Shown here piece by piece: positions 42,010-54,373 of a stretch of DNA of 64,000 bases. The number at the start of each line of letters is the position of its first letter. Within the stretch, counting starts at the first letter, position 1. Origin of the DNA: Polyangiales bacterium (GTDB lineage: Bacteria > Myxococcota_A > Polyangia > Polyangiales > JADJQN01); contig CAXNJO010000003.1 of the NCBI GenBank assembly GCA_964202905.1, forward strand, positions 448,001 through 512,000. Direction: 5' to 3'. The translations under genes and the position numbers were made by a program. A model generated the notes under the pieces. That model was given only the letters and a program-made list of their open reading frames with translations, did not search any database and was not told the origin of the DNA.

Positions 42010-42654
42010 TCAGCCCTCGAGCGGGAACGCGACGAGCACGACGACGTTCCACACGAGGTGCGCGACGAGCGGGGGCACGAGGCTCCCCGACCCCTCACGC
42101 AGCAACCCCCACGCGAGCCCGCACGCGAGCGCCACGAGCGCCAGCGTGGGCGCGCCGAGCGGCAGCAGCACCAGCCCGTACACGAGCGCGCACGCGCCGA
42201 GCCCCACCACGCGCCCGAAGCGCCGCACGAGCGCGGCATGCACCACCCCGCGCCACACGAGCTCTTCGCCGACGATCACGGGCAGGACCGCCAGCGCCGC
42301 GGTCGCGGGCGAAGGCCCACGGAAGGCCGCGTACAGCGCCGCCGTGTCATGCGCGACGAAGGGCGCGAAGCGCGCGATCGTCGGGTAGAGCAGGTGGGTC
42401 GCGCAGGCCATCGCGACGCCCACCCCCGCCCCGAGGAGCACGAGCGGGCCGCTCGGCCGCGCGACGGCGCGCATCGCGGGACCCTCGATCGCGAACGCCG
42501 CCGCGCCGAGCACGAGCGCCGCGCTGCCGACGGCGAGCCACATGCCGATGGGCCGCGCCGCCGCGACCGCCACCAGCCAGACGAGCACGGACGCGCCCGC
42601 GAGCGCTTCGTCACGCCGTACGCGGGGGTCGCGCGCGGCCACCCCCTCGCTCAT
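42010..42654 (-). CDS. CPBP (CAAX/Abi) intramembrane metalloprotease
   Basis: [22 protein letters not shown]; multiple TM. Confidence 0.88.
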
Positions 42655-44798: not shown

Positions 44799-45056
44799 AT
44801 GACGACCCCCGCTGACCTCGAGGCGGCCGTGCGCCGCGTGAACGCGCTCTCGCAGGCCCCGAGCACCGGCGACATGCTCGCGCTCTACGGCCTCTACAAG
44901 CAGGCCACGGCGGGGGACGCGGGCAGCACGCGCCCCGGCATGTTCGACCTGAAGGGCCGCGCCAAGTACGACGCCTGGGCGACGCACCGCGGGCTCGACG
45001 CCGAAGCCGCCCGCGCGGCCTACGTCGCCCTCGTCGATCGCCTCGCGGGGCGCTGA
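44799..45056 (+). CDS. Acyl-CoA-binding protein (ACBP)
   Basis: LALYGLYKQATAGD..RPGMFDLKGRAKYDAW. Confidence 0.93.
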   Translation: MTTPADLEAAVRRVNALSQAPSTGDMLALYGLYKQATAGDAGSTRPGMFDLKGRAKYDAWATHRGLDAEAARAAYVALVDRLAGR

Positions 45057-45132: not shown

Positions 45133-45504
45133 TCAGCCGCCCTGCAGGAACAGCGCGACGCAGCAGCCGATCCCGCCCGTCCAGAGCGCGGTGCGGAGCA
45201 GCGCGGCGTCCGCGAGGTACGCGACGAGGTAGCCCACACGCAGCCCGACGAACGCGAGCGCGAGCGCGTCGACGCGGCCCATCGGCGCGTGCGTCTGGTG
45301 CGCGACGAGCACCGCGGCCGCGAACAACGGGAACGCCTCGAAGCCGTTCGCCTGCGCGGCGTTCGCGCGGCGGCGCCAGCCCTCCTGGCGCGCGAGCCAA
45401 TCACGCGGGTTGCTGTTGTCGAAGCGCGAGCCCGCCTTGGCGATGCCCGTCGCGATGTAGGGCAGAAGTCCTGCAACCAGGATGCACCAGTAACCGATCG
45501 TCAT
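45133..45504 (-). CDS. MAPEG family membrane protein
   Basis: FDNSNPRDWL..RRANAAQANGFEAFPLF, RVGYLVAY. Confidence 0.9.
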   Translation of the reverse strand: MTIGYWCILVAGLLPYIATGIAKAGSRFDNSNPRDWLARQEGWRRRANAAQANGFEAFPLFAAAVLVAHQTHAPMGRVDALALAFVGLRVGYLVAYLADAALLRTALWTGGIGCCVALFLQGG

Positions 45505-45581: not shown

Positions 45582-45813
45582 ACGCACGACGCCGAGTCAG
45601 CGTGAAAGACCCAGCACTCGCGCCGGGATGTCGCGCTGAATCAAGGAGGCGCCCGCAGCCGGGCTCGGGGCCCGGCGAGGACGCACGACGCCGAGTCAGC
45701 GTGAAAGACCCAGCACTCGCGCCGGGATGTCGCGCTGAATCAAGGAGGCGCCCGCAGCCGGGCTCGGGGCCCGGCGAGGACGCACGACGCCGAGTCAGCG
45801 TGAAAGACCCAGC
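45582..45813. repeat. Perfect 99-bp tandem repeat (2.3 copies), palindromic REP-like intergenic element
   Basis: Unit beginning ACGCACGACGCCGAGTCAGCGTGAAAGACCCAGC at 45582, 45681 and 45780; internal inverted repeats. Confidence 0.95.
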
Positions 45814-45820
45814 GAGCGCG

Positions 45821-47056
45821 TCAGCCGTCGCTGACCATGTCGCCGAGTTCTTCCCCACTTTGCACGAAGAAGGCCTGCCCGTACGAGTCGAGCAGCTCGA
45901 GCGCCATGTCCATGTCCTCGCGCGTGTGGCCGCGCGTGACGTTCACGCGGAGGCGCTCTTCGCCCTTCTTCACGCCGGGATACGTGATCGGCACCATCAT
46001 CACGCCGCTCTCGAGGAGCGCGATGTGCATGAAGAGCGCCTTGCGCTCGTCGCGGCACATCACGGGCATGATGTGCGTGTCGCTCATGCCGAGGTGGAAG
46101 CCGAGCTCGCCGAGGCGACGCCGCATGTAGCCGGCCTTCTCGTGCAACTCCGCGACGAGCGCCGGGCCCTCTTCTTCGAGCATCGTCAGGATCGTCGACG
46201 CCGCCGCGACGATCGGCACGGGCAGCGACGCCGAGAAGAGGAACGAGCGCGCGTAGTGCTTCACGTGGTCGACGACCTCGCGCGAGCCGAGCAGCACGCC
46301 GCCGATGCCGCCGAAGGTCTTCGAGAAGGTCGTGACGACGACCGGCACGCGCCCCTCGAGCCCGAGGTGCTCGGCGAGCCCGCGTCCGTGCGTGCCGAGC
46401 GTCCCCGAGCCGTGCGCGTCGTCGCACACGACGACCGCGTCGTAGCGGTCGCACACCTCGAGGATCTCGGCGAGCTTCGCCATGTCGCCGTCGAGCGAGT
46501 AGATGCCCTCGATCATGACGAGCGCGTTCTTGCGCTCCTTCGTCTTGAGGATGCGCTCGAGCGACTTCACCGAGTTGTGGTTGAAGAAGCGGACCTCCGG
46601 CTGCCGCGTGGGCGTGCCTGCCGCGAGGAAGGTCCCGTCGAGGATGCAGGCGTGCGAGAGGTTGTCGAGGACGATGGTCGTGTCCTGATCGGCGAGCGCC
46701 ATGATGGTGCCGACCATCGCTTGGTAGCCGGTCGTGAAGATCAGCGCCTCTTCGAAGCCGAAGTACTGCGCGAGCCGCTCTTCGAGCTCGACGTGGGCGG
46801 TCGTCGTGGCCTGCACGCGCGACGACGAGAGGCCCGTCGAGAAGCGGTCGATGGCGGCCTTCGCGGCCTCCTTCACCTTCGGGTGGTTGGTGAGCCCGAG
46901 GTAATCGTTGGAGCTGAAATTGACGATGGGTTTGCCGCCGATCGTCGTGTGCAGCCCGCCCGTCTCGAAGGGACGGAAGTACGGGTAGACCTGCTTCTCG
47001 CGCGCCTCGCGGATGCGGGCGAGTTCCTGGTGGGCCTTGTCGTCGATCCAGCTCAT
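45821..47056 (-). CDS. Alpha-oxoamine synthase (serine palmitoyltransferase/BioF/Kbl family)
   Basis: QVYPYFR, NFSSNDYLGL, TGYQA, SHACILDG, EGIYSLDGD, DDAHG, TFSKTFGGIGG (PLP Lys), FSAS. Confidence 0.9.
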   Translation of the reverse strand: MSWIDDKAHQELARIREAREKQVYPYFRPFETGGLHTTIGGKPIVNFSSNDYLGLTNHPKVKEAAKAAIDRFSTGLSSSRVQATTTAHVELEERLAQYFGFEEALIFTTGYQAMVGTIMALADQDTTIVLDNLSHACILDGTFLAAGTPTRQPEVRFFNHNSVKSLERILKTKERKNALVMIEGIYSLDGDMAKLAEILEVCDRYDAVVVCDDAHGSGTLGTHGRGLAEHLGLEGRVPVVVTTFSKTFGGIGGVLLGSREVVDHVKHYARSFLFSASLPVPIVAAASTILTMLEEEGPALVAELHEKAGYMRRRLGELGFHLGMSDTHIMPVMCRDERKALFMHIALLESGVMMVPITYPGVKKGEERLRVNVTRGHTREDMDMALELLDSYGQAFFVQSGEELGDMVSDG

Positions 47057-48267
47057 GGGTGTCTCTCAGCAGTGGAGGCGCGTCCCAGCACGACGGCCGA
47101 GACGTTGCCGTAGAAGCCAACCGTCGTGACGACGACGTGCTCGAGTCGCGCGCGCGGGCGGCCGCAGAGCACGGGCTCGACGGGCGCGCCGTCGAGCCAC
47201 GCGAGCGCCGTGGCGAGGCCGAAGGCGCCTGCCGCGCCGAAGGTCTCGCCGCAGTAGGCCTTGGGCGCGGCGCAGAGCACGTCCGGGTGCAGCGCACGCC
47301 CGATCCCGACGAGCTCCGCGGCGTCGAAGCGCTCGAGACCGCTCGCGGCACACACGACCGCGTCGATGTCGCCGGCGCCGAGCCCCGCGTCACGCACGGC
47401 CGCGCGGATCGCCCGCGCGACACCATCGACGGAGGGGTGCACGATGAGCGCCTCGCTCTCGGGCGCGGTGAAGGCCGTGCCGTAGCCGAGGAGCCTCCCG
47501 CGGATGCGGGCCCCGCGCGCGCGCGCGTCCGCCGGTCGCTCGACGACGACGTACGCCGCGCCTTCGCCGACCCGCATGCCGTGGCCGTGCGACTCGCCCG
47601 GCGCCCACGGCCCGTCGCCTTCGGAGACGAGCTCGAGCTTGCGGAGCGCGCGGTAGAGCGGCTCGCTCACGACCTCGCCGCCGCCGACGAGGAAGACGTC
47701 CGCGCGCTCGTGCGCGAGGTGCGTCTCGGCCGTCAGCACCGCGTCGAGCGCGCCGCAGTTCCCATCGACGATCGTGACGTTGGGCGCCCGCAGGTCCTCC
47801 CAGATCGACACGTAGCCCGCGGCCGCGTTGACGACGGTGTTCGGGAAGCGCGCGGGGTTGATGTAGCGGGGGTCCTCGCGCTCGGCGACGAGGTTCAGCT
47901 CGGTGATCGCGTCGAGCGAACCGTACGCGGTCGCCGAGATGATCCCGACCTCCTCGGGCCGACGCGCGATCCACGCGCCGTCGCGCTTGAGCCCCGCGTC
48001 CTCGAGCGCCTGCTTCGCCGCGACGATCAGGAACTTCGTGAGCCGGTCGAAGTTGCGAAGCCCCTTGTCGCCGAGATAACGCGCCGCGTCAAAGCCACGC
48101 ACCTCCGCGATGCGCGCCTGCGGGAGCTCGGCGGCGGGCAGCGCCGTGACGGGCCCGTCGAACGCGCGCGCCGCCGCGAGGCTCGGATCCGCGAGCGCCT
48201 CGCGGTGCGCCGCGGCTCCGACGGCGAAGGGCGCGACGACGCCGAGGCCGGTGATGGCGAGCTCCAT
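47053..48267 (-). CDS. Ketosynthase-like protein lacking the catalytic triad (chain-length-factor-like)
   Basis: AITGLG, FPNTVVNAAAG, GEGAA; catalytic Cys position reads N (DGNCG); His motifs replaced (CAASG, GETFGA). Confidence 0.82.
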   Translation of the reverse strand: MELAITGLGVVAPFAVGAAAHREALADPSLAAARAFDGPVTALPAAELPQARIAEVRGFDAARYLGDKGLRNFDRLTKFLIVAAKQALEDAGLKRDGAWIARRPEEVGIISATAYGSLDAITELNLVAEREDPRYINPARFPNTVVNAAAGYVSIWEDLRAPNVTIVDGNCGALDAVLTAETHLAHERADVFLVGGGEVVSEPLYRALRKLELVSEGDGPWAPGESHGHGMRVGEGAAYVVVERPADARARGARIRGRLLGYGTAFTAPESEALIVHPSVDGVARAIRAAVRDAGLGAGDIDAVVCAASGLERFDAAELVGIGRALHPDVLCAAPKAYCGETFGAAGAFGLATALAWLDGAPVEPVLCGRPRARLEHVVVTTVGFYGNVSAVVLGRASTAERHP

Positions 48268-49511
48268 CAGCGCCTCCCCACGGTGTCGGGGAGCACGCCC
48301 TCGCGCGCGAGCAGGAGCACCGCGTCGTAGCCGCCGAAAGCGAGCGCGTTGTTGAGCACGACGTCGACCTTCGCCGTGCGCGCCGCGCCGACGACGAGGT
48401 CGAGCGCGCAGTCGGGATCGGGCGTCTCGTAGCCGAGCGTCGGCGGGAGGATCCCCGTCGCGATCGACTCCACGCACGACACCGCCTCGAGCGCGCTCGC
48501 CGCGCCCATGCAGTGGCCGATCATGCTCTTCATCGAGCTGATCGGGACGCTGCGCGCGCGGTCGCCGAAGACCTTGTGCATCACGAGCGCCTCGACCTTG
48601 TCGTTGGCGTCGGTGCCGGTGCCGTGCGCGTTGACGAAGTCGACGTCCTCGGCGCGCAGGCCGCTCGCCTCGATCGCGCGGCGCATCGCCTGCACGGAGC
48701 CCTCGCCCTCCGGGTGCGGCCGCGTGATGTGGTGCGCGTCGCAGGCGAGGCCGTAGCCGCCGATCTCCGCGAGGATCCGCGCGCCGCGGGCGCGGGCGTG
48801 GTCCTCAGACTCGATCACCATCATGCCGGCGCCCTCGCCGACGAGCAGCCCCTTGCGGTTCAGGTCGAAGGGCTGGCAGCGCTCGGGCGCGATCGCGCCG
48901 AGCCGCGCGAACCCCGCGAACTGCAGCTTCTCGATGATCTCGCTCGCGCCCGTGATCGCGACGTCGGCGCGGCCCGCGCGGATCTGATCGGCCGCGAAGC
49001 CGATCGCGTAGTTGCCCGCGGCGCACGCGGCCGGCAGCGTCTGCGTCATGCCGTGCGCGCCAAACGCGCGCGCGACGTGGATCGGCAGCAGCGTGGTGCC
49101 GTAGCGGTTGATCGTGCGGCTCTTCACGGCCTCTTCGCCGCGGTGGATCCACGCCGACTCGAGCTCGCTGATGACGTCGGCCTCGCCCATCGTGGTGCCG
49201 ATGATGACGGCCGTGCGCTCGGTCGCGAGGAGCCGCGCGGGGATGCCGGCGTCCTCGACGGCCATGCGCGCGGCGGCGACCGCGAACTGCGAGCAACGCC
49301 CCATGCGCCGCGCCTCGGCCGCGGTCATCCAGTCCCGCGCGCGGAAACCCTTGACCTCGCAGGCGATCGAGCGGCCGATGGTGCCGGTGTCGAAGCCCTC
49401 CACGGGGGACGCGCCGCTCCGACCTGCGGCGAGCGACTCCCAGAAGGCCCGACGCCCGAGGCCGATGGAACTCACGGCCCCGAGCCCCGTCACGAAGACA
49501 CGGCGGCTCAT
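48267..49511 (-). CDS. Beta-ketoacyl-ACP synthase (FabF-type / type II PKS KS)
   Basis: RRVFVTGLG, AACAAG (Cys), NAHGTGT, KSMIGH, AFGG. Confidence 0.93.
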   Translation of the reverse strand: MSRRVFVTGLGAVSSIGLGRRAFWESLAAGRSGASPVEGFDTGTIGRSIACEVKGFRARDWMTAAEARRMGRCSQFAVAAARMAVEDAGIPARLLATERTAVIIGTTMGEADVISELESAWIHRGEEAVKSRTINRYGTTLLPIHVARAFGAHGMTQTLPAACAAGNYAIGFAADQIRAGRADVAITGASEIIEKLQFAGFARLGAIAPERCQPFDLNRKGLLVGEGAGMMVIESEDHARARGARILAEIGGYGLACDAHHITRPHPEGEGSVQAMRRAIEASGLRAEDVDFVNAHGTGTDANDKVEALVMHKVFGDRARSVPISSMKSMIGHCMGAASALEAVSCVESIATGILPPTLGYETPDPDCALDLVVGAARTAKVDVVLNNALAFGGYDAVLLLAREGVLPDTVGRR

Positions 49512-49679
49512 GAATGAGCCGCGCGTTGTACCCCGCGCGCGCGCAGCAGCGCAAGGCGACGCCCAGCGTCATCGGGCGCGGCGCACACCCCGTCCGCGCG
49601 CGCGCCGCACCGCCCGCGGACCACGCCCGACGCACGGCCCCCGCGACGCGCACCCCCGCGACGCGCTACCCTCGACGCC

Positions 49680-50672
49680 GTGACGCGACGCACCGGCCGC
49701 TCCTTCGCGCTGCTCTCCGTCTGCGTTCTGCTCGCGGGCGGCTGTGCCGTCGCCCGCGGAGGGCTGTTCGGCGCGGCGGCGCCCGACGCAGGCCAGCGCG
49801 ACGCCGGCGACGCCACCGACCTCGGCACCGAAGACGCCGGCGACGCGACCGACCTCGGCAACGCAGACGCCGGCGACGCCACCGACCTCGGCAACGCAGA
49901 CGCCGGCGACGCGACCGACCTCGGAACACCCGACCTCGGAACACCGCTCTGCGACCCCGAGCTCTGCCCCGGGCGCGTCTGCGTCGCGGGCGCATGCGGC
50001 TTCGCGACGAGCTGCGCCGCGCTGCTCGCGGCCGTCCCGCGGCTGCCGGACGGCGCCTACACCCTCGACGGAGATGGTCCCGGCGAACTACTCCCCGCAG
50101 ACGCCTGGTGCGACATGAGCACCAACGGCGGCGGCTGGACGCTCGTGCTGAAGGCCGATGGCGCCCTCGCGACGTTCTCGTACGACGCGGCCGCGTGGAC
50201 GGACGACACCGAGTTCGGTGACGCCGCGATCGACGGCATCGAAGCGAAGCTCCGCAGCTACCGGACGGTCGCCTTCACCGCGCTGCGTCTCGTGCTCGTG
50301 ACGGGCGCGGAGCGACGCGCCGTCGAGCCGATCGTCGACGGCGCCAGTGCGCGCGCGCTCTTCGCGGGCCCCACGCGCGACACGGGCCTCTCGCGCGACA
50401 CATGGCTCAGCCTCGTGCCCGGCAGCGCGCTGCAGGACGACTGCAACGACGAGGGCATCAACGTCGTTCCCGCCGCCGGCTTCGCCCGTGTGCGGATCGG
50501 CATCGTCGCGAACAACGAGCGCAACTGCTACACGCCCGACTCGCGGGTCGGCCTCGGCGGCGCGGGCGGCGCCGACCCGCTCACCGTCGGCAACGTGAAC
50601 CCCGACGTCGGGTGGACGTGGGGCGACGAATCGCGCCGCAGCGCGTCGTTCGCCTACCTGTTCGTGCGCTGA
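49680..50672 (+). CDS. Lipoprotein with fibrinogen-like (xCDxxxxGGGWT) domain
   Basis: LAGGC lipobox, DAGDATDLG linker repeats, SCAAL..DGAY..WCDMSTNGGGWTLV. Confidence 0.8.
   Translation: MTRRTGRSFALLSVCVLLAGGCAVARGGLFGAAAPDAGQRDAGDATDLGTEDAGDATDLGNADAGDATDLGNADAGDATDLGTPDLGTPLCDPELCPGRVCVAGACGFATSCAALLAAVPRLPDGAYTLDGDGPGELLPADAWCDMSTNGGGWTLVLKADGALATFSYDAAAWTDDTEFGDAAIDGIEAKLRSYRTVAFTALRLVLVTGAERRAVEPIVDGASARALFAGPTRDTGLSRDTWLSLVPGSALQDDCNDEGINVVPAAGFARVRIGIVANNERNCYTPDSRVGLGGAGGADPLTVGNVNPDVGWTWGDESRRSASFAYLFVR
49800..49931 (+). repeat. Coding 33-bp tandem repeat x4 (DAGDATDLGxx)
   Basis: GACGCCGGCGACGCSACCGACCTCGG repeated four times. Confidence 0.9.
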
Positions 50673-50750
50673 CGCCGCGCGGAACGGGCCGTGATGTTCC
50701 GCGCCGCGGCACCTTGACACCCCCGACGCGCCCCGTACAAAGCGCGCCGC

Positions 50751-52466
50751 ATGGCCCCCTCCGACGCGCCGCTCACGCTCGTCTCCGCGATGTCGAGGCT
50801 CCGCCGCGGGCCGGGTCGCGGCTTCCGCTTCGTCACGACGAAGGGCGAGGAGCGCTTCTACGCGTACGAGGCGCTCGAGGCCGAGGCGCACCGCCGCGCC
50901 GCGCACCTCGCGTCGCTCGGCCTCGCGAAGGGCGACCGACTCGCGATCGTCGTCGCCGAGGGCGACGAGTTCGTGCTCTCGTTCCTCGGCGCCTGCGTCG
51001 CGGGCGTCGTGCCCGTCCCCATCTATCCGCGCGCGACCTTCAAGGGCATCGAGGGCTACGCCGACACGGTCGCGCACATCGCGCGCGCCTCGGGCGCCCG
51101 CGTCCTGCTCACGATGGAGGCGACGCGGCCCTACGTGGAGCCGGCGCTCGCGAAGGACTGCGGGCTCGAGCGCGTCGTGCTCACCGAGCAGGTCTTCGCG
51201 GGTGAGGCGCCGGCCTTCACGCCGCCCGCGATCACACCGGAAGACCTCTGCTTCCTCCAGTTCACCTCGGGCTCGACCAGCCAGCCCAAGGGCGTGGTCG
51301 TCACGCACGCGAACCTCGTCGCGAACGCCACGGCCTTCCTCGGGCCCGCGGGACTCGACCGCAACGACGACGACCTCGGCGTCTCGTGGCTGCCGCTCTT
51401 CCACGACATGGGGCTCATCGGCTTCGTGCTCGGCACGCTCGTCTGCGACATCCCCGTCGTGTTGCTGCCGACCTCGACCTTCGCCCGCGGTCCGCGCATC
51501 TGGCTCGAGACCATCCACAAGCACCGCGGCACCATCACCTACGCCCCGAACTTCGCGTACGCGCTCGCGGTCAAGCGGCTCAAGGACCGCGACCTCAAGG
51601 ACCTCGACCTCTCGTGCCTGCGCATCGCGGGCTGCGGCGCCGAGCCGATCCACGCGCAGACCATGCGGGACTTCGCCGAGCGCCTCGCGCCCGCGGGCTT
51701 CGACGCGCGCGCCCTGCTGCCGAGCTACGGCATGGCCGAGGCGACGCTCGCGATCACCTTCCATCCGCGCGGCACGCCGCTCCTCACCGACACCGTCGAT
51801 CCCGAGGCGATGAAGCGCGGCGAGGCGCGCCCCGTCCCGCCCGGCACGCCCGGCGCGCTCGAGCTCGTCGCGTGCGGCGTGCCCTTCCCCGAGCACGGTC
51901 TGCGCATCGTCGACACCGAGACGGGCGAGCCCCTCGGCGAGCGCCGCGTGGGCCAGATCGTCAACATCGGACCGTCGGTCACGGGCGCCTATTTCCAGAA
52001 CCCCGAGGCCACCGCGCTCGGCTGGAAGGACGGCTGGCTCCAGACGGGCGACCTCGGCTACGTCGCCGACGGCGCGCTCTACATCTGCGGTCGCCTCAAG
52101 GACCTCATCATCATCCACGGCGCGAACTACTACCCACAGGACATCGAGTGGGCCGTGCAGGACATCGAGGGCGTGCGCCGCGGGAACGTCGTCGCCTTCA
52201 GCGTGCTGCGCGACGGCGTCGAGCAGCTCGTCGTCGCGGCGGAGGCCAACTCGGGCGACCTGGAGCGCCTGAAAAAAGCCATCCCCGAGCGCGTCTACGA
52301 AGCCGCCGGCCTCGCGACCTCGCACGTCGCGATCGTCGGTGTCGGTACGCTGCCGAAGACCTCGAGCGGCAAGGCGCAGCGCCTGAAGACGAAGCGCCTC
52401 TACGAGGACGGCCTGCTCGCCGAGCACGGCAGCGGGCGTGTGGCCGAGGGCGGCGAGGCCGACTGA
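50751..52466 (+). CDS. Fatty acyl-AMP ligase (FAAL)
   Basis: FLQFTSGSTSQPKGV, SWLPLFHDMGLIG, PNFAY, SYGMAEATL, TGDLG, GRLKDLII, PKTSSGK. Confidence 0.93.
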   Translation: MAPSDAPLTLVSAMSRLRRGPGRGFRFVTTKGEERFYAYEALEAEAHRRAAHLASLGLAKGDRLAIVVAEGDEFVLSFLGACVAGVVPVPIYPRATFKGIEGYADTVAHIARASGARVLLTMEATRPYVEPALAKDCGLERVVLTEQVFAGEAPAFTPPAITPEDLCFLQFTSGSTSQPKGVVVTHANLVANATAFLGPAGLDRNDDDLGVSWLPLFHDMGLIGFVLGTLVCDIPVVLLPTSTFARGPRIWLETIHKHRGTITYAPNFAYALAVKRLKDRDLKDLDLSCLRIAGCGAEPIHAQTMRDFAERLAPAGFDARALLPSYGMAEATLAITFHPRGTPLLTDTVDPEAMKRGEARPVPPGTPGALELVACGVPFPEHGLRIVDTETGEPLGERRVGQIVNIGPSVTGAYFQNPEATALGWKDGWLQTGDLGYVADGALYICGRLKDLIIIHGANYYPQDIEWAVQDIEGVRRGNVVAFSVLRDGVEQLVVAAEANSGDLERLKKAIPERVYEAAGLATSHVAIVGVGTLPKTSSGKAQRLKTKRLYEDGLLAEHGSGRVAEGGEAD

Positions 52467-52586
52467 TCGGGCGGGCCGCGCGCCGCGGTCCGGGCGTGCT
52501 TTCAAGCGGCGGGCGGTTATGCTCGGCCGCGCTGCGCGACCACCCGGACGCGCGGAGATGTCCGCGAAAATCAGGGAGACGAGAAG

Positions 52587-52835
52587 ATGGACCGCCCCGA
52601 GCTACTCAAGACGTTCCAGCGCATGGCGACCGAGATCGCCGAGAAGGACTTCGGCCACGTCACCGAAGAGCACGTGATCGCGGACCTCGGCATCGACTCC
52701 CTCGGCATGCTCGAGCTCGTCGGCTCGATGGAGCGCGAGCTGAAGATCGCGGTCCCCGACGAGCAGCTCGTCGGCATCCAGACCGTCCGTCAGCTCCTCG
52801 ACCTCGTCGAGAAGCGCACGCGCGCATCGGCCTGA
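52587..52835 (+). CDS. Acyl carrier protein
   Basis: 82 aa, acidic, DLGIDSL phosphopantetheine site. Confidence 0.92.
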   Translation: MDRPELLKTFQRMATEIAEKDFGHVTEEHVIADLGIDSLGMLELVGSMERELKIAVPDEQLVGIQTVRQLLDLVEKRTRASA

Positions 52836-52856
52836 GCACTGCAGCGAGGGGGTCCC

Positions 52857-53675
52857 ATGGCGTCCGACCAGTTCCACGAGAAGCTCTACAAGAACTTCAC
52901 GACCTTCTTCGACAAGGCGGAGCAGGAGCGCCGCTGGAACCCGTACCGCGACGTCCCCTGGGATCGCATCAACCCCGAGACGCCCGCCTTCGTCGCCACC
53001 TGCGCGGAGACCTTCCTCGGCGTCGAGAGCTTCCTGCCCGACTACATCCGCAAGGGCCTCGAGGTCGTGCGGGCGTCGTCGTGGGCGCAGCGCTCGTTCG
53101 CGGCGAACTGGGGCTACGAGGAGCTCAAGCACTCGGTCGCGCTGATGGAGTACCTCCTCCGCTCGGGCAAGCGCACGCAAGAGCAGATGTTCGACTTCCA
53201 GGCGAAGCTGATGACCGAAGAGTGGCGCCGCCCCTTCGACACCGCGCGCCAGATGACCATCTACGGCAGCTTCCAGGAGATGGCGACCTTCGTCATCTAC
53301 CTGCGCCACGAGGCGCTCGCCAAGCAGTACAACGACGACGCGCTCGCGGCTGTGTACCGCTTCAACGCGCGTGACGAGATCGCCCACGCGCGCTTCTACG
53401 AGGACATCGTGAAGGTCTATCTCGAGGAGGACCGCGAGGGCACGCTCCGCGACATCGCGCACGTCGCGAAGAACTTCGAGATGCCCGGCATCGGCATCGT
53501 CCCGGACTACGACGCCCGCATCGAGCTGATGCGCGAGCACGGCCACGTCGACCGCGACATCTTCCTTCAAAAGGTCTATTTCCCCGTCCTCAAGTACCTC
53601 GGCGTGACCCGCCAGGAGCTCGTCGAGGTCGCGCGCCGCGAGCGCGACGAGCGCCGCGCGTCCGCCGCGCAGTGA
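52857..53675 (+). CDS. Soluble ferritin-like diiron enzyme, acyl-ACP desaturase family
   Basis: GVES, WGYEELKH, QEMAT, RDEIAH diiron ligands; FEMPG. Confidence 0.85.
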   Translation: MASDQFHEKLYKNFTTFFDKAEQERRWNPYRDVPWDRINPETPAFVATCAETFLGVESFLPDYIRKGLEVVRASSWAQRSFAANWGYEELKHSVALMEYLLRSGKRTQEQMFDFQAKLMTEEWRRPFDTARQMTIYGSFQEMATFVIYLRHEALAKQYNDDALAAVYRFNARDEIAHARFYEDIVKVYLEEDREGTLRDIAHVAKNFEMPGIGIVPDYDARIELMREHGHVDRDIFLQKVYFPVLKYLGVTRQELVEVARRERDERRASAAQ

Positions 53676-53697
53676 TCCCCCCGATCGGAGCACGAGC

Positions 53698-53940
53698 ATG
53701 AGCGCCGAATTGAAAGAGAGCCTCCGCCGCATCGTCGCCGACGTGAGCGAGGTCGACGAGATCCCCGACGACACCGACTTCCGCGAGCTCGGCATCGACT
53801 CGATGATGGGCATCGAGATCGTCGCGGAGATCGAGCGTACGTACAAGATCTCCGTCCCGGAGAGCGAGCTGAAGAACATGACCTCGCTCACCCGCGTGTA
53901 CGAGCTCGTGCAGACGCACCTCGCGGCCGCGGCGGGCTGA
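53698..53940 (+). CDS. Acyl carrier protein (second)
   Basis: 80 aa, ELGIDSM. Confidence 0.92.
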   Translation: MSAELKESLRRIVADVSEVDEIPDDTDFRELGIDSMMGIEIVAEIERTYKISVPESELKNMTSLTRVYELVQTHLAAAAG

Positions 53941-53947
53941 GCCCGCG

Positions 53948-54373
53948 GTGCTCGGCACGCGCGACGGTCGCCCGGCGTACACGCACGCGGTCCGCGTCGC
54001 CTACGTCGACACCGACGCCGCCGGCGTGGTGCACCACTCGCAGTACTTCCGCTATCTCGAGCAGGGCCGCGTCGAGCTGATGCGCGCGGTGGGCGTCGAT
54101 TACCTCACGTTCGAGCGCACGCGCGGCCTCGCGTTGCCCGTCGTCGAGGCCCGCCTCCGCTACCGCGCGCCCGCGCGCTTCGACGATCTGCTCGCGCTCG
54201 AGACCTGGCTCACCGAGGGCTCCCGCGCGAAGCTCGTGTTCGCGAGCGTGCTGCGCCGTGCAGCCGACGACGCCGTGCTCCACGAGGCGAGCGTCACCCT
54301 CGCGTGCGTGACGATGCCGGCCGGCACGATCTGCAGCGTGCCGACGGACCTGCGCGAGCGGCTCGGCGCCTGA
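53948..54373 (+). CDS. Hotdog-fold acyl-CoA/ACP thioesterase (YbgC/FadM family)
   Basis: DTDAAGVVHHSQYFRYLEQGR, YRAPARFDD. Confidence 0.9.
   Translation: MLGTRDGRPAYTHAVRVAYVDTDAAGVVHHSQYFRYLEQGRVELMRAVGVDYLTFERTRGLALPVVEARLRYRAPARFDDLLALETWLTEGSRAKLVFASVLRRAADDAVLHEASVTLACVTMPAGTICSVPTDLRERLGA

Follow-up and report, generated by a model that had tools for sequence, protein, structure and literature searches.

The stretch analysed here, referred to as the window, comprises 64,000 nucleotides from contig C3 (positions 448001-512000) of the 5.68-Mb genome of a Polyangiales bacterium (G000, 94.5% complete), whose relatives bearing names are Polyangiales, Sandaracinaceae and Labilithrix metagenome-assembled genomes (MAGs). 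It holds a cluster of eight lipid genes in two divergent arms (Table 1). The minus-strand arm encodes a ketosynthase (KS), a second, catalytically dead KS resembling a chain length factor (CLF), and a pyridoxal phosphate (PLP)-dependent alpha-oxoamine synthase (AOS). The plus-strand arm encodes a fatty acyl-AMP ligase (FAAL), two acyl carrier proteins (ACP1 and ACP2) with a desaturase-like protein between them, and a thioesterase. All eight genes are present and intact, and the G+C content of their third codon positions (0.93-0.97) is typical of the genome (mean 0.92). The KS/CLF junction is a TGATG with a 1 bp overlap and the CLF/AOS junction an ATGA with a 4 bp overlap, and the gaps from FAAL through to thioesterase are 120, 21, 22 and 7 bp. 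The layout given in a preliminary description of this DNA, with overlapping minus-strand junctions and short plus-strand gaps, was thereby confirmed, as were the gene families it had named, which were borne out by Pfam and NCBIfam models and by catalytic residues. Promoter and terminator scans yielded no signal above chance.

Table 1. Genes of the divergent lipid cluster and of the insert between its arms, in window coordinates.
Feature	Position	Strand	Basis
AOS, PLP-dependent alpha-oxoamine synthase of a divergent Spt-sister lineage, 411 aa, predicted serine acyltransferase	45821..47056	-	PF00155, residues, motifs, trees
CLF-like KS, catalytically dead, 404 aa	47053..48267	-	Active-site residues replaced; 9S5H chain C match
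KS, active FabF-like ketosynthase, 414 aa	48267..49511	-	C163/H296/H333; 9S5H chain B match
Fibrinogen-like YCDxxxxGGGW lipoprotein, 330 aa, local insert	49680..50672	+	NF040941 above cut-off
FAAL, fatty acyl-AMP ligase / acyl-ACP synthetase, AasR-like, 571 aa	50751..52466	+	NF006624 best family
ACP1, DSLGMLE type	52587..52835	+	PF00550
Soluble di-iron acyl-ACP desaturase-like protein, 272 aa, accessory	52857..53675	+	PF03405
ACP2, DSMMxIE type	53698..53940	+	PF00550
Hotdog-fold YbgC/FadM-type thioesterase, accessory	53948..54373	+	TIGR00051 above cut-off

Among 401 genomes of the order, over which the order-wide presence tallies given here were made, the AOS was detected in 255 (E<=1e-110); four genomes flagged as unpublished (G122, G313, G387 and G396) are included in these tallies, and the other claims are independent of them. 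The gene occurs as a single match in 254 of the 255 positive genomes, mostly at 72-93% identity and including a genome of 1.8 Mb, which is a housekeeping pattern, and it was found in none of 62 genomes from other orders of the phylum (E<=1e-100). Measured against this distribution, conventional serine palmitoyltransferase (Spt) genes are its mirror image. Searches with the Spt model NF047600 covered 36 AOS-negative and 36 AOS-positive genomes, mostly near-complete and chosen on the AOS result alone. A conventional Spt-like gene (442-475 bits) was detected in 36/36 of the AOS-negative genomes and in 0/36 of the AOS-positive ones, where the best score was 334 bits bar a single match of 384 bits that lies inside an open frame of 1496 aa. 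As the 36 AOS-negative genomes come from two families only, this exclusion represents few independent swaps between the two genes.

Homologs of the bacterial ceramide synthase bCerS were found in 375/401 genomes (E<=1e-40), and therefore the order needs an Spt activity. The homolog in the source genome (C1:770850-772136, 34% identity to YghO, E 1.6e-62) is unlinked to the cluster; in the short loci compared around conventional Spt genes, bCerS adjoins the Spt gene in 5/30. The window FAAL is the source genome's best match to AasR of Escherichia coli BL21 (B) (36% identity, E 1e-100) and has an insertion in common with it, and its best family is NF006624 at 499 bits (cut-off 600). No LpxC match was found in the source genome at its 94.5% completeness, which counts in favor of a sphingolipid function, and the LptF/LptG paralogs that E. 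coli B carries in its sphingolipid locus likewise had no match there. Because the FAAL is AasR-like, a bCerS homolog is present in the genome and the AOS occurs where Spt is missing, the cluster is most likely a ceramide front end, and it is quite probable that the AOS substitutes for Spt. The same three observations run counter to the separation from the spt/cerS/cerR gene set that had been proposed for this cluster. The sphingoid or amino-lipid product proposed with it is the best reading.

In the AOS itself, K246, H135 and D212/H215 are invariant in 10 orthologs and correspond to the PLP lysine, stacking histidine and D-x-A-H of the fold, and the protein, 35% identical to E. coli Spt, bears the Spt-type motifs TTGYQ, TFSK and ARSFLFSAS. 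A 27-row LG+G4 tree places the AOS lineage in a clade of its own, sister to the Spt clade (SH-aLRT 99); this tree and a larger 76-row tree each contain one experimentally studied Spt only, that of E. coli B. An approximately unbiased (AU) test rejected a grouping of the AOS with conventional Polyangiales Spt alone (p=0.0006). The nearest relative outside the lineage, P0002, belongs to a sister lineage and joins an AOS to a ketosphinganine-reductase-like domain of SDR type (short-chain dehydrogenase/reductase), for which the nearest Atlas clusters bear the name 3-dehydrosphinganine reductase (feature score 1.00) and the TM-score to eukaryotic KDSR models is 0.92-0.93. A PDB sequence search with this domain (E<=1e-25) returned generic SDRs only. 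An AOS clade from Bacteroidota and unassigned MAGs (L118, L119, L121 and L123, 40-43% identity) also groups with the cluster AOS lineage, and no bCerS, CerR or AasR match was found near these genes.

Conservation of gene order ties the AOS to its neighbors. CLF was detected in 206/401 genomes (E<=1e-45): 201 genomes have both AOS and CLF, 54 have the AOS only (50 of these belong to one genus), 5 have only the CLF and 141 have neither. CLF orthologs are also named in the cultured species Pendulispora rubella (LVJ94_16310) and P. brunnea (LZC95_16360). Gene neighborhoods were compared in 78 AOS loci, 9 of which are distant non-orthologs and several of which are interrupted by contig ends, and in 51 desaturase loci, the two sets partly overlapping. 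KS-CLF-AOS stands divergent from an adjacent ACP2-containing arm in 38/78 AOS loci, and both arms are adjacent in 12/51 desaturase loci, including four with the full eight genes (L002, L003, L019 and L028). The divergent arrangement is therefore not due to chance, and the co-conservation of the two arms on which the preliminary description had relied was upheld. A genome of the same genus carries a seven-gene form without the desaturase, and in one of the same family the two arms lie on two contigs.

The two carrier proteins sort with different partners across these loci. ACP1 and ACP2 are separate families, with ACP2 forming its own clade in an ACP tree. ACP2 goes with the AOS, being present in 49/78 AOS loci (in 11 of them alone, head-to-head with the AOS), and ACP1 goes with the FAAL, desaturase and methyltransferase, adjoining the desaturase in 47/51 desaturase loci. 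This is what would be predicted for a KS that bridges two carriers. In L053, L078, L085 and L099, a third, unrelated ACP lies downstream of the AOS on the opposite strand and clusters loosely, on long branches, with E. coli AcpR.

The Cys-His-His triad of the KS is kept in 12/12 orthologs, and the adjacent CLF-like subunit has N170 in place of the Cys and A307 and E341 in place of the two His residues, so that one subunit carries the triad and its partner does not, as in type II KS/CLF pairs. The best PDB sequence matches of the KS are 9S5H chain B (6.7e-127) and then the ishigamide KS 6KXD (4e-98), and that of the CLF is 9S5H chain C (E 6.8e-42). A monomer model of the CLF has a thiolase fold with low-confidence segments within residues 116-144; a fold search with it gave generic FabF matches, and 9S5H was not among the matches listed. 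The dead subunit is predicted to gauge chain length in a KS/CLF heterodimer. 9S5H is probably the anammox FabF heterodimer (amxFabF2/amxFabFmut) of bioRxiv 10.64898/2026.05.19.726425, an assignment of our own, as the code does not appear in the text of the preprint, which describes that pair as the first instance of a CLF in a pathway for fatty acids. The anammox pair and the ishigamide KS/CLF likewise combine an active KS with a triad-less partner. Unlike them, the window pair adjoins an AOS and has no linked FabZ or radical SAM genes, and it would be another CLF in a fatty acid pathway beside the anammox case.

The desaturase and thioesterase of the plus arm are accessory. All six di-iron ligands of the desaturase-like protein are in place (E57, E89, H92, E141, E174 and H177), and its model (pLDDT 94) finds plant acyl-ACP desaturases and mycobacterial DesA2 as top folds; the ligand set and fold are the same in these enzymes at ~20% identity. 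The protein is accordingly predicted to desaturate acyl-ACP, with hydroxylation as the alternative. It occurs in 52/401 genomes (E<=1e-20), in 33 of them with the AOS and in 19 without it, and in 1/78 AOS loci; in fourteen loci of family f9 (L006-L018 and L029), ACP1 and the desaturase stand alone, away from the AOS. MXAN_6636-6639 may be a cluster of FAAL, ACP, desaturase and type III PKS genes, for which the literature searched gave no confirmation. One 2Fe-2S-like open reading frame, unlinked to the cluster, was identified by motif in the source genome as a ferredoxin candidate. The thioesterase is present in 9/78 AOS loci and 10/51 desaturase loci and likely serves in editing. In coriander and ivy, a delta-4 desaturase acts with a dedicated ACP, a beta-ketoacyl-ACP synthase and a thioesterase to give petroselinic acid, and the window cluster would have in common with that route the logic of desaturating and then elongating on a private ACP, and would differ from it in having an AOS as the predicted acceptor.

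A cyclopropane-synthase-like methyltransferase, unlinked in the source genome (C7:33206-34075), lies inside the cluster in L003 and L177. It is present in 50/51 desaturase-positive genomes and also in 47/80 desaturase-negative ones, so a tight link between the two was discarded, as the association runs one way only. An ERG4-like reductase was likewise discarded as a partner of the methyltransferase, being found in 5/51 loci and not in the source genome. A module of FAAL, methyltransferase, ACP1 and desaturase, together with a different, active FabF-like KS, occupies 18 loci in genomes where the AOS was not found, and a parallel FAAL-methyltransferase-ACP1-(desaturase)-FabF module occupies 5 further loci, likewise in genomes lacking the AOS. 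The genomes tested among these 23 loci (L030-L046, L048 and L049 with L043 excluded, and L172-L176) carry conventional Spt. Its genes are candidates for making sphingoid bases or fatty acids with methyl branches.

Building on the observed gene identities, catalytic residues, co-conservation, ACP partner sorting and mutual exclusion of AOS and Spt, we infer the following reactions and, with them, which amino acid is used, how long the chain is and where its double bond lies. The AasR-like FAAL would load a long-chain fatty acid on ACP1, where the desaturase, if present, would introduce a mid-chain double bond with the help of the unlinked ferredoxin, and the unlinked methyltransferase may modify that double bond. 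The KS/CLF would then take the chain from ACP1 and extend it by two carbons onto malonyl-ACP2, the dead subunit gauging its length, with housekeeping FabD, FabG, FabZ and FabI providing loading and reduction. The AOS would join acyl-ACP2 with L-serine to give a 3-keto-sphingoid base, probably C20, which the unlinked bCerS homolog would N-acylate and a reductase outside the cluster would reduce, and the thioesterase would remove mis-loaded acyl chains from the ACPs. This scheme as a whole, in which the cluster serves most Polyangiales as a sphingolipid front end with a non-orthologous AOS, is favored with moderate confidence from sequence comparison. The cluster had previously been described as a self-contained line, and this did not hold: no malonyl transferase, ketoreductase (KR), dehydratase (DH), enoyl reductase (ER), ferredoxin or ceramide synthase lies within it, bCerS is located elsewhere, the desaturase and thioesterase are accessory and the KS/CLF is missing from one genus that keeps ACP2 and the AOS.

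A number of observations weigh against the ceramide front end and its extension step. In the AOS, the substrate loop that reads SRxxNG[ST] in Spt is replaced by SRVQATT (SRIQATT in 1/10 orthologs), and the amino acid may therefore not be serine. The AOS scores below the cut-offs of all three NCBIfam Spt models (330/640, 286/500 and 231/670 bits), although the conventional Polyangiales Spt-like genes also fall short (453-474/640 bits). Its placement outside the known-Spt clade in the 76-row quick tree has a support of 83-92, a grouping with Kbl was not rejected by the AU test (p=0.07), and the P0002 fusion is one sequence on one contig. The best CerR candidate in the source genome is weak (29% identity, E 1.4e-29), and neither a clear CerR ortholog nor a close KDSR-like SDR was found there. 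LpxC was detected in 12/36 AOS-positive and 24/36 AOS-negative genomes; its loss does not follow the AOS across genomes, and loss of lipopolysaccharide was therefore set aside as the reason for the cassette. Related genomes in the tallies are not independent observations. The desaturase is missing from 222/255 AOS-positive genomes and from the same-genus locus, and one genus has the AOS in 50/55 genomes and CLF in 0/55 with ACP2 and AOS retained, so that extension is not needed for AOS function. Finally, of the KS/CLF pairs with a solved structure the closest is probably that of the anammox bacteria, which did not elongate hexanoyl-ACP in vitro and preferred short chains (bioRxiv 10.64898/2026.05.19.726425).

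The alternative that survives best, rated as unlikely, retains the AOS with ACP2 as the Spt substitute and makes the KS/CLF just a transacylase or selector between ACP1 and ACP2, with the products of the desaturase and methyltransferase passing to the N-acyl chain or, through the thioesterase, to glycerolipids. Such an arrangement would account for the 11 loci and the whole genus in which ACP2 and AOS do without the pair, for the family-f9 loci with ACP1 and desaturase away from the AOS, for the 19 genomes with a desaturase where the AOS was not found, and for the absence of KR, DH and ER from the cluster. It sits poorly with a catalytic triad that is complete in all 12 KS orthologs, with the translational coupling of KS, CLF and AOS in the window and the company of the AOS in 201 of the 206 CLF-bearing genomes, and with the active FabF that Spt-bearing relatives retain directly behind ACP1.

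A second alternative concerns the product. RedL and PigJ/PigH of prodiginine biosynthesis make use of a FAAL-ACP-KS-ACP-AOS parts list, and the window genes could form a dissociated line of this type, in which an unreduced beta-keto chain is joined to glycine, alanine, serine or cysteate to give an aminoketone, pyrrolinone or capnine-like lipid and no ceramide precursor. The cluster, with FAAL, ACP, KS/CLF, ACP, AOS and thioesterase and no reductases, matches this architecture, the AOS substrate loop is atypical and a cysteate acyltransferase (28EH, E 5e-61) is among the close PDB matches of the AOS. We consider this reading distinctly improbable. The window genes are stand-alone, the KS scores far below the cut-off of the PigJ model (78.9 bits against 900), and the AOS gene, almost always present in one copy, is strongly conserved throughout the order, even in very small genomes, in the manner of a housekeeping gene; moreover, it alternates with Spt in an order where bCerS is near-universal, and a KDSR-like fusion is present in its sister lineage.

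It is very improbable that the window AOS represents an additional BioF or Kbl, with the acyl genes supplying pimelate or another short acyl donor. In favor of this, bioF scores slightly higher on it than any other NCBIfam model (335 vs 330 bits), its closest Atlas cluster is auto-named putative 8-amino-7-oxononanoate synthase and the AU test leaves the Kbl grouping standing. Against it, the source genome has three AOS-family genes, with bioF beside bioD and kbl beside tdh elsewhere, the Kbl model NF005394 gives 312 bits for the AOS and 579 for the genome's own kbl, grouping with BioF was rejected (p=0.004), and the presence of the AOS mirrors that of Spt. Biotin and threonine roles were rejected on these grounds, and of the phylogenetic alternatives raised in the preliminary description, BioF was excluded and Kbl was not.

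Other genes near the cluster appear unrelated to it. The fibrinogen-like gene between the two arms, a ninth gene overlooked in the preliminary description, has a lookalike in 1/78 AOS loci (L055) and in 0/51 desaturase loci and is therefore regarded as a local insert; the linker of its product contains 33-bp repeats. An acyl-CoA-binding protein gene (44799-45056, plus strand) and a MAPEG-family gene (45133-45504, minus strand) adjoin the AOS. All three were rejected as members of the system, as they do not recur across loci bar the fibrinogen-like gene in one, and an NmrA-like SDR at 42651 was rejected as just a weak CerR match. Immediately downstream of the AOS stop codon lies a perfect 99-bp tandem repeat of 2.3 copies (45582-45813), with partial copies of 34-40 bp at C3:38918 and C1:55368 of the source genome; it is possibly a REP-like element, or else a duplication that arose in assembly. 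Elsewhere in this genome are, by sequence appearance, Pfa-type polyunsaturated fatty acid synthase genes (C15:11303-25100) and, as read from translations, an oleABCD-like olefin gene set (C4:367425-372116) and a separate acyl-ligase/ACP/acyltransferase/kinase lipid locus (C6:179445-190319).

In relation to known pathways, the ceramide front end proposed here most resembles the AasR-AcpR-Spt route (PMC9386255, PMC11324152), which operates with bCerS and CerR in Caulobacter crescentus and E. coli BL21(DE3) and likewise uses a FAAL-type acyl-ACP synthetase, a dedicated ACP and a PLP oxoamine synthase. PMC11324152 gives a five-gene ceramide pathway with cerS in its own separate operon, as the ceramide synthase gene is in the window genome. 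The two systems differ in that the window AOS falls outside the Spt clade and is accompanied by two ACPs, a KS/CLF, an acyl-ACP desaturase and a thioesterase, with no linked cerR. It is thus likely that the cluster works like AasR-AcpR-Spt, yet its AOS does not belong to the Spt clade as described. In the passages covered, aasR-acpR homolog operons are noted in three myxobacteria and the Sorangium cellulosum Spt is placed with the Bacteroidetes type (PMC9386255), homologs outside clade B are treated as non-Spt (PMC11334938), a bacterial KDSR is demonstrated (PMC9278070) and nothing appears on this AOS cluster system (PMC11837247). In the literature searched, subscription journals and MIBiG aside, we found neither a description of this AOS clade nor one of bacteria that use a KS/CLF or an acyl-ACP desaturase to make sphingolipids, in keeping with the preliminary description, which had not recognized a described cluster.

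A more far-reaching version of the scheme is put forward tentatively, as an outcome we would not expect. In it, Polyangiales would tailor chains on their carriers beforehand and thereby make sphingoid bases resembling those of eukaryotes. The desaturase and methyltransferase would give the ACP1-bound chain a mid-chain double bond as well as a methyl branch, the KS/CLF would extend the chain onto ACP2 such that it escapes full reduction, and the AOS would receive a trans-2-enoyl (or 3-hydroxy/3-oxo) chain and yield 4E-sphingenine-type bases directly, without an oxygen-dependent delta-4 desaturase. Keck et al. reportedly described a C9-methyl-C20-sphingosine in 2011, and 9-methyl sphingosines reportedly occur in S. 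cellulosum So ce56. If this version were true, bacteria would reach fungal-style 9-methyl sphingosines by an independent route of their own, and there would be a second, non-orthologous Spt lineage.

If the ceramide front end is correct, roughly two thirds of the order rely on an Spt lineage that is now auto-annotated as BioF or Kbl, and therefore genome surveys may miss or misassign sphingolipid producers. Sphingolipid synthesis would then also include a KS/CLF step of type II and an acyl-ACP desaturase of the plant type, and the cluster provides candidate genes for how long, how unsaturated and how methyl-branched the sphingoid bases of myxobacteria are. Among myxobacteria the Polyangiales are abundant; many of them have no detectable LpxC, and their outer membranes may rest on sphingolipids.

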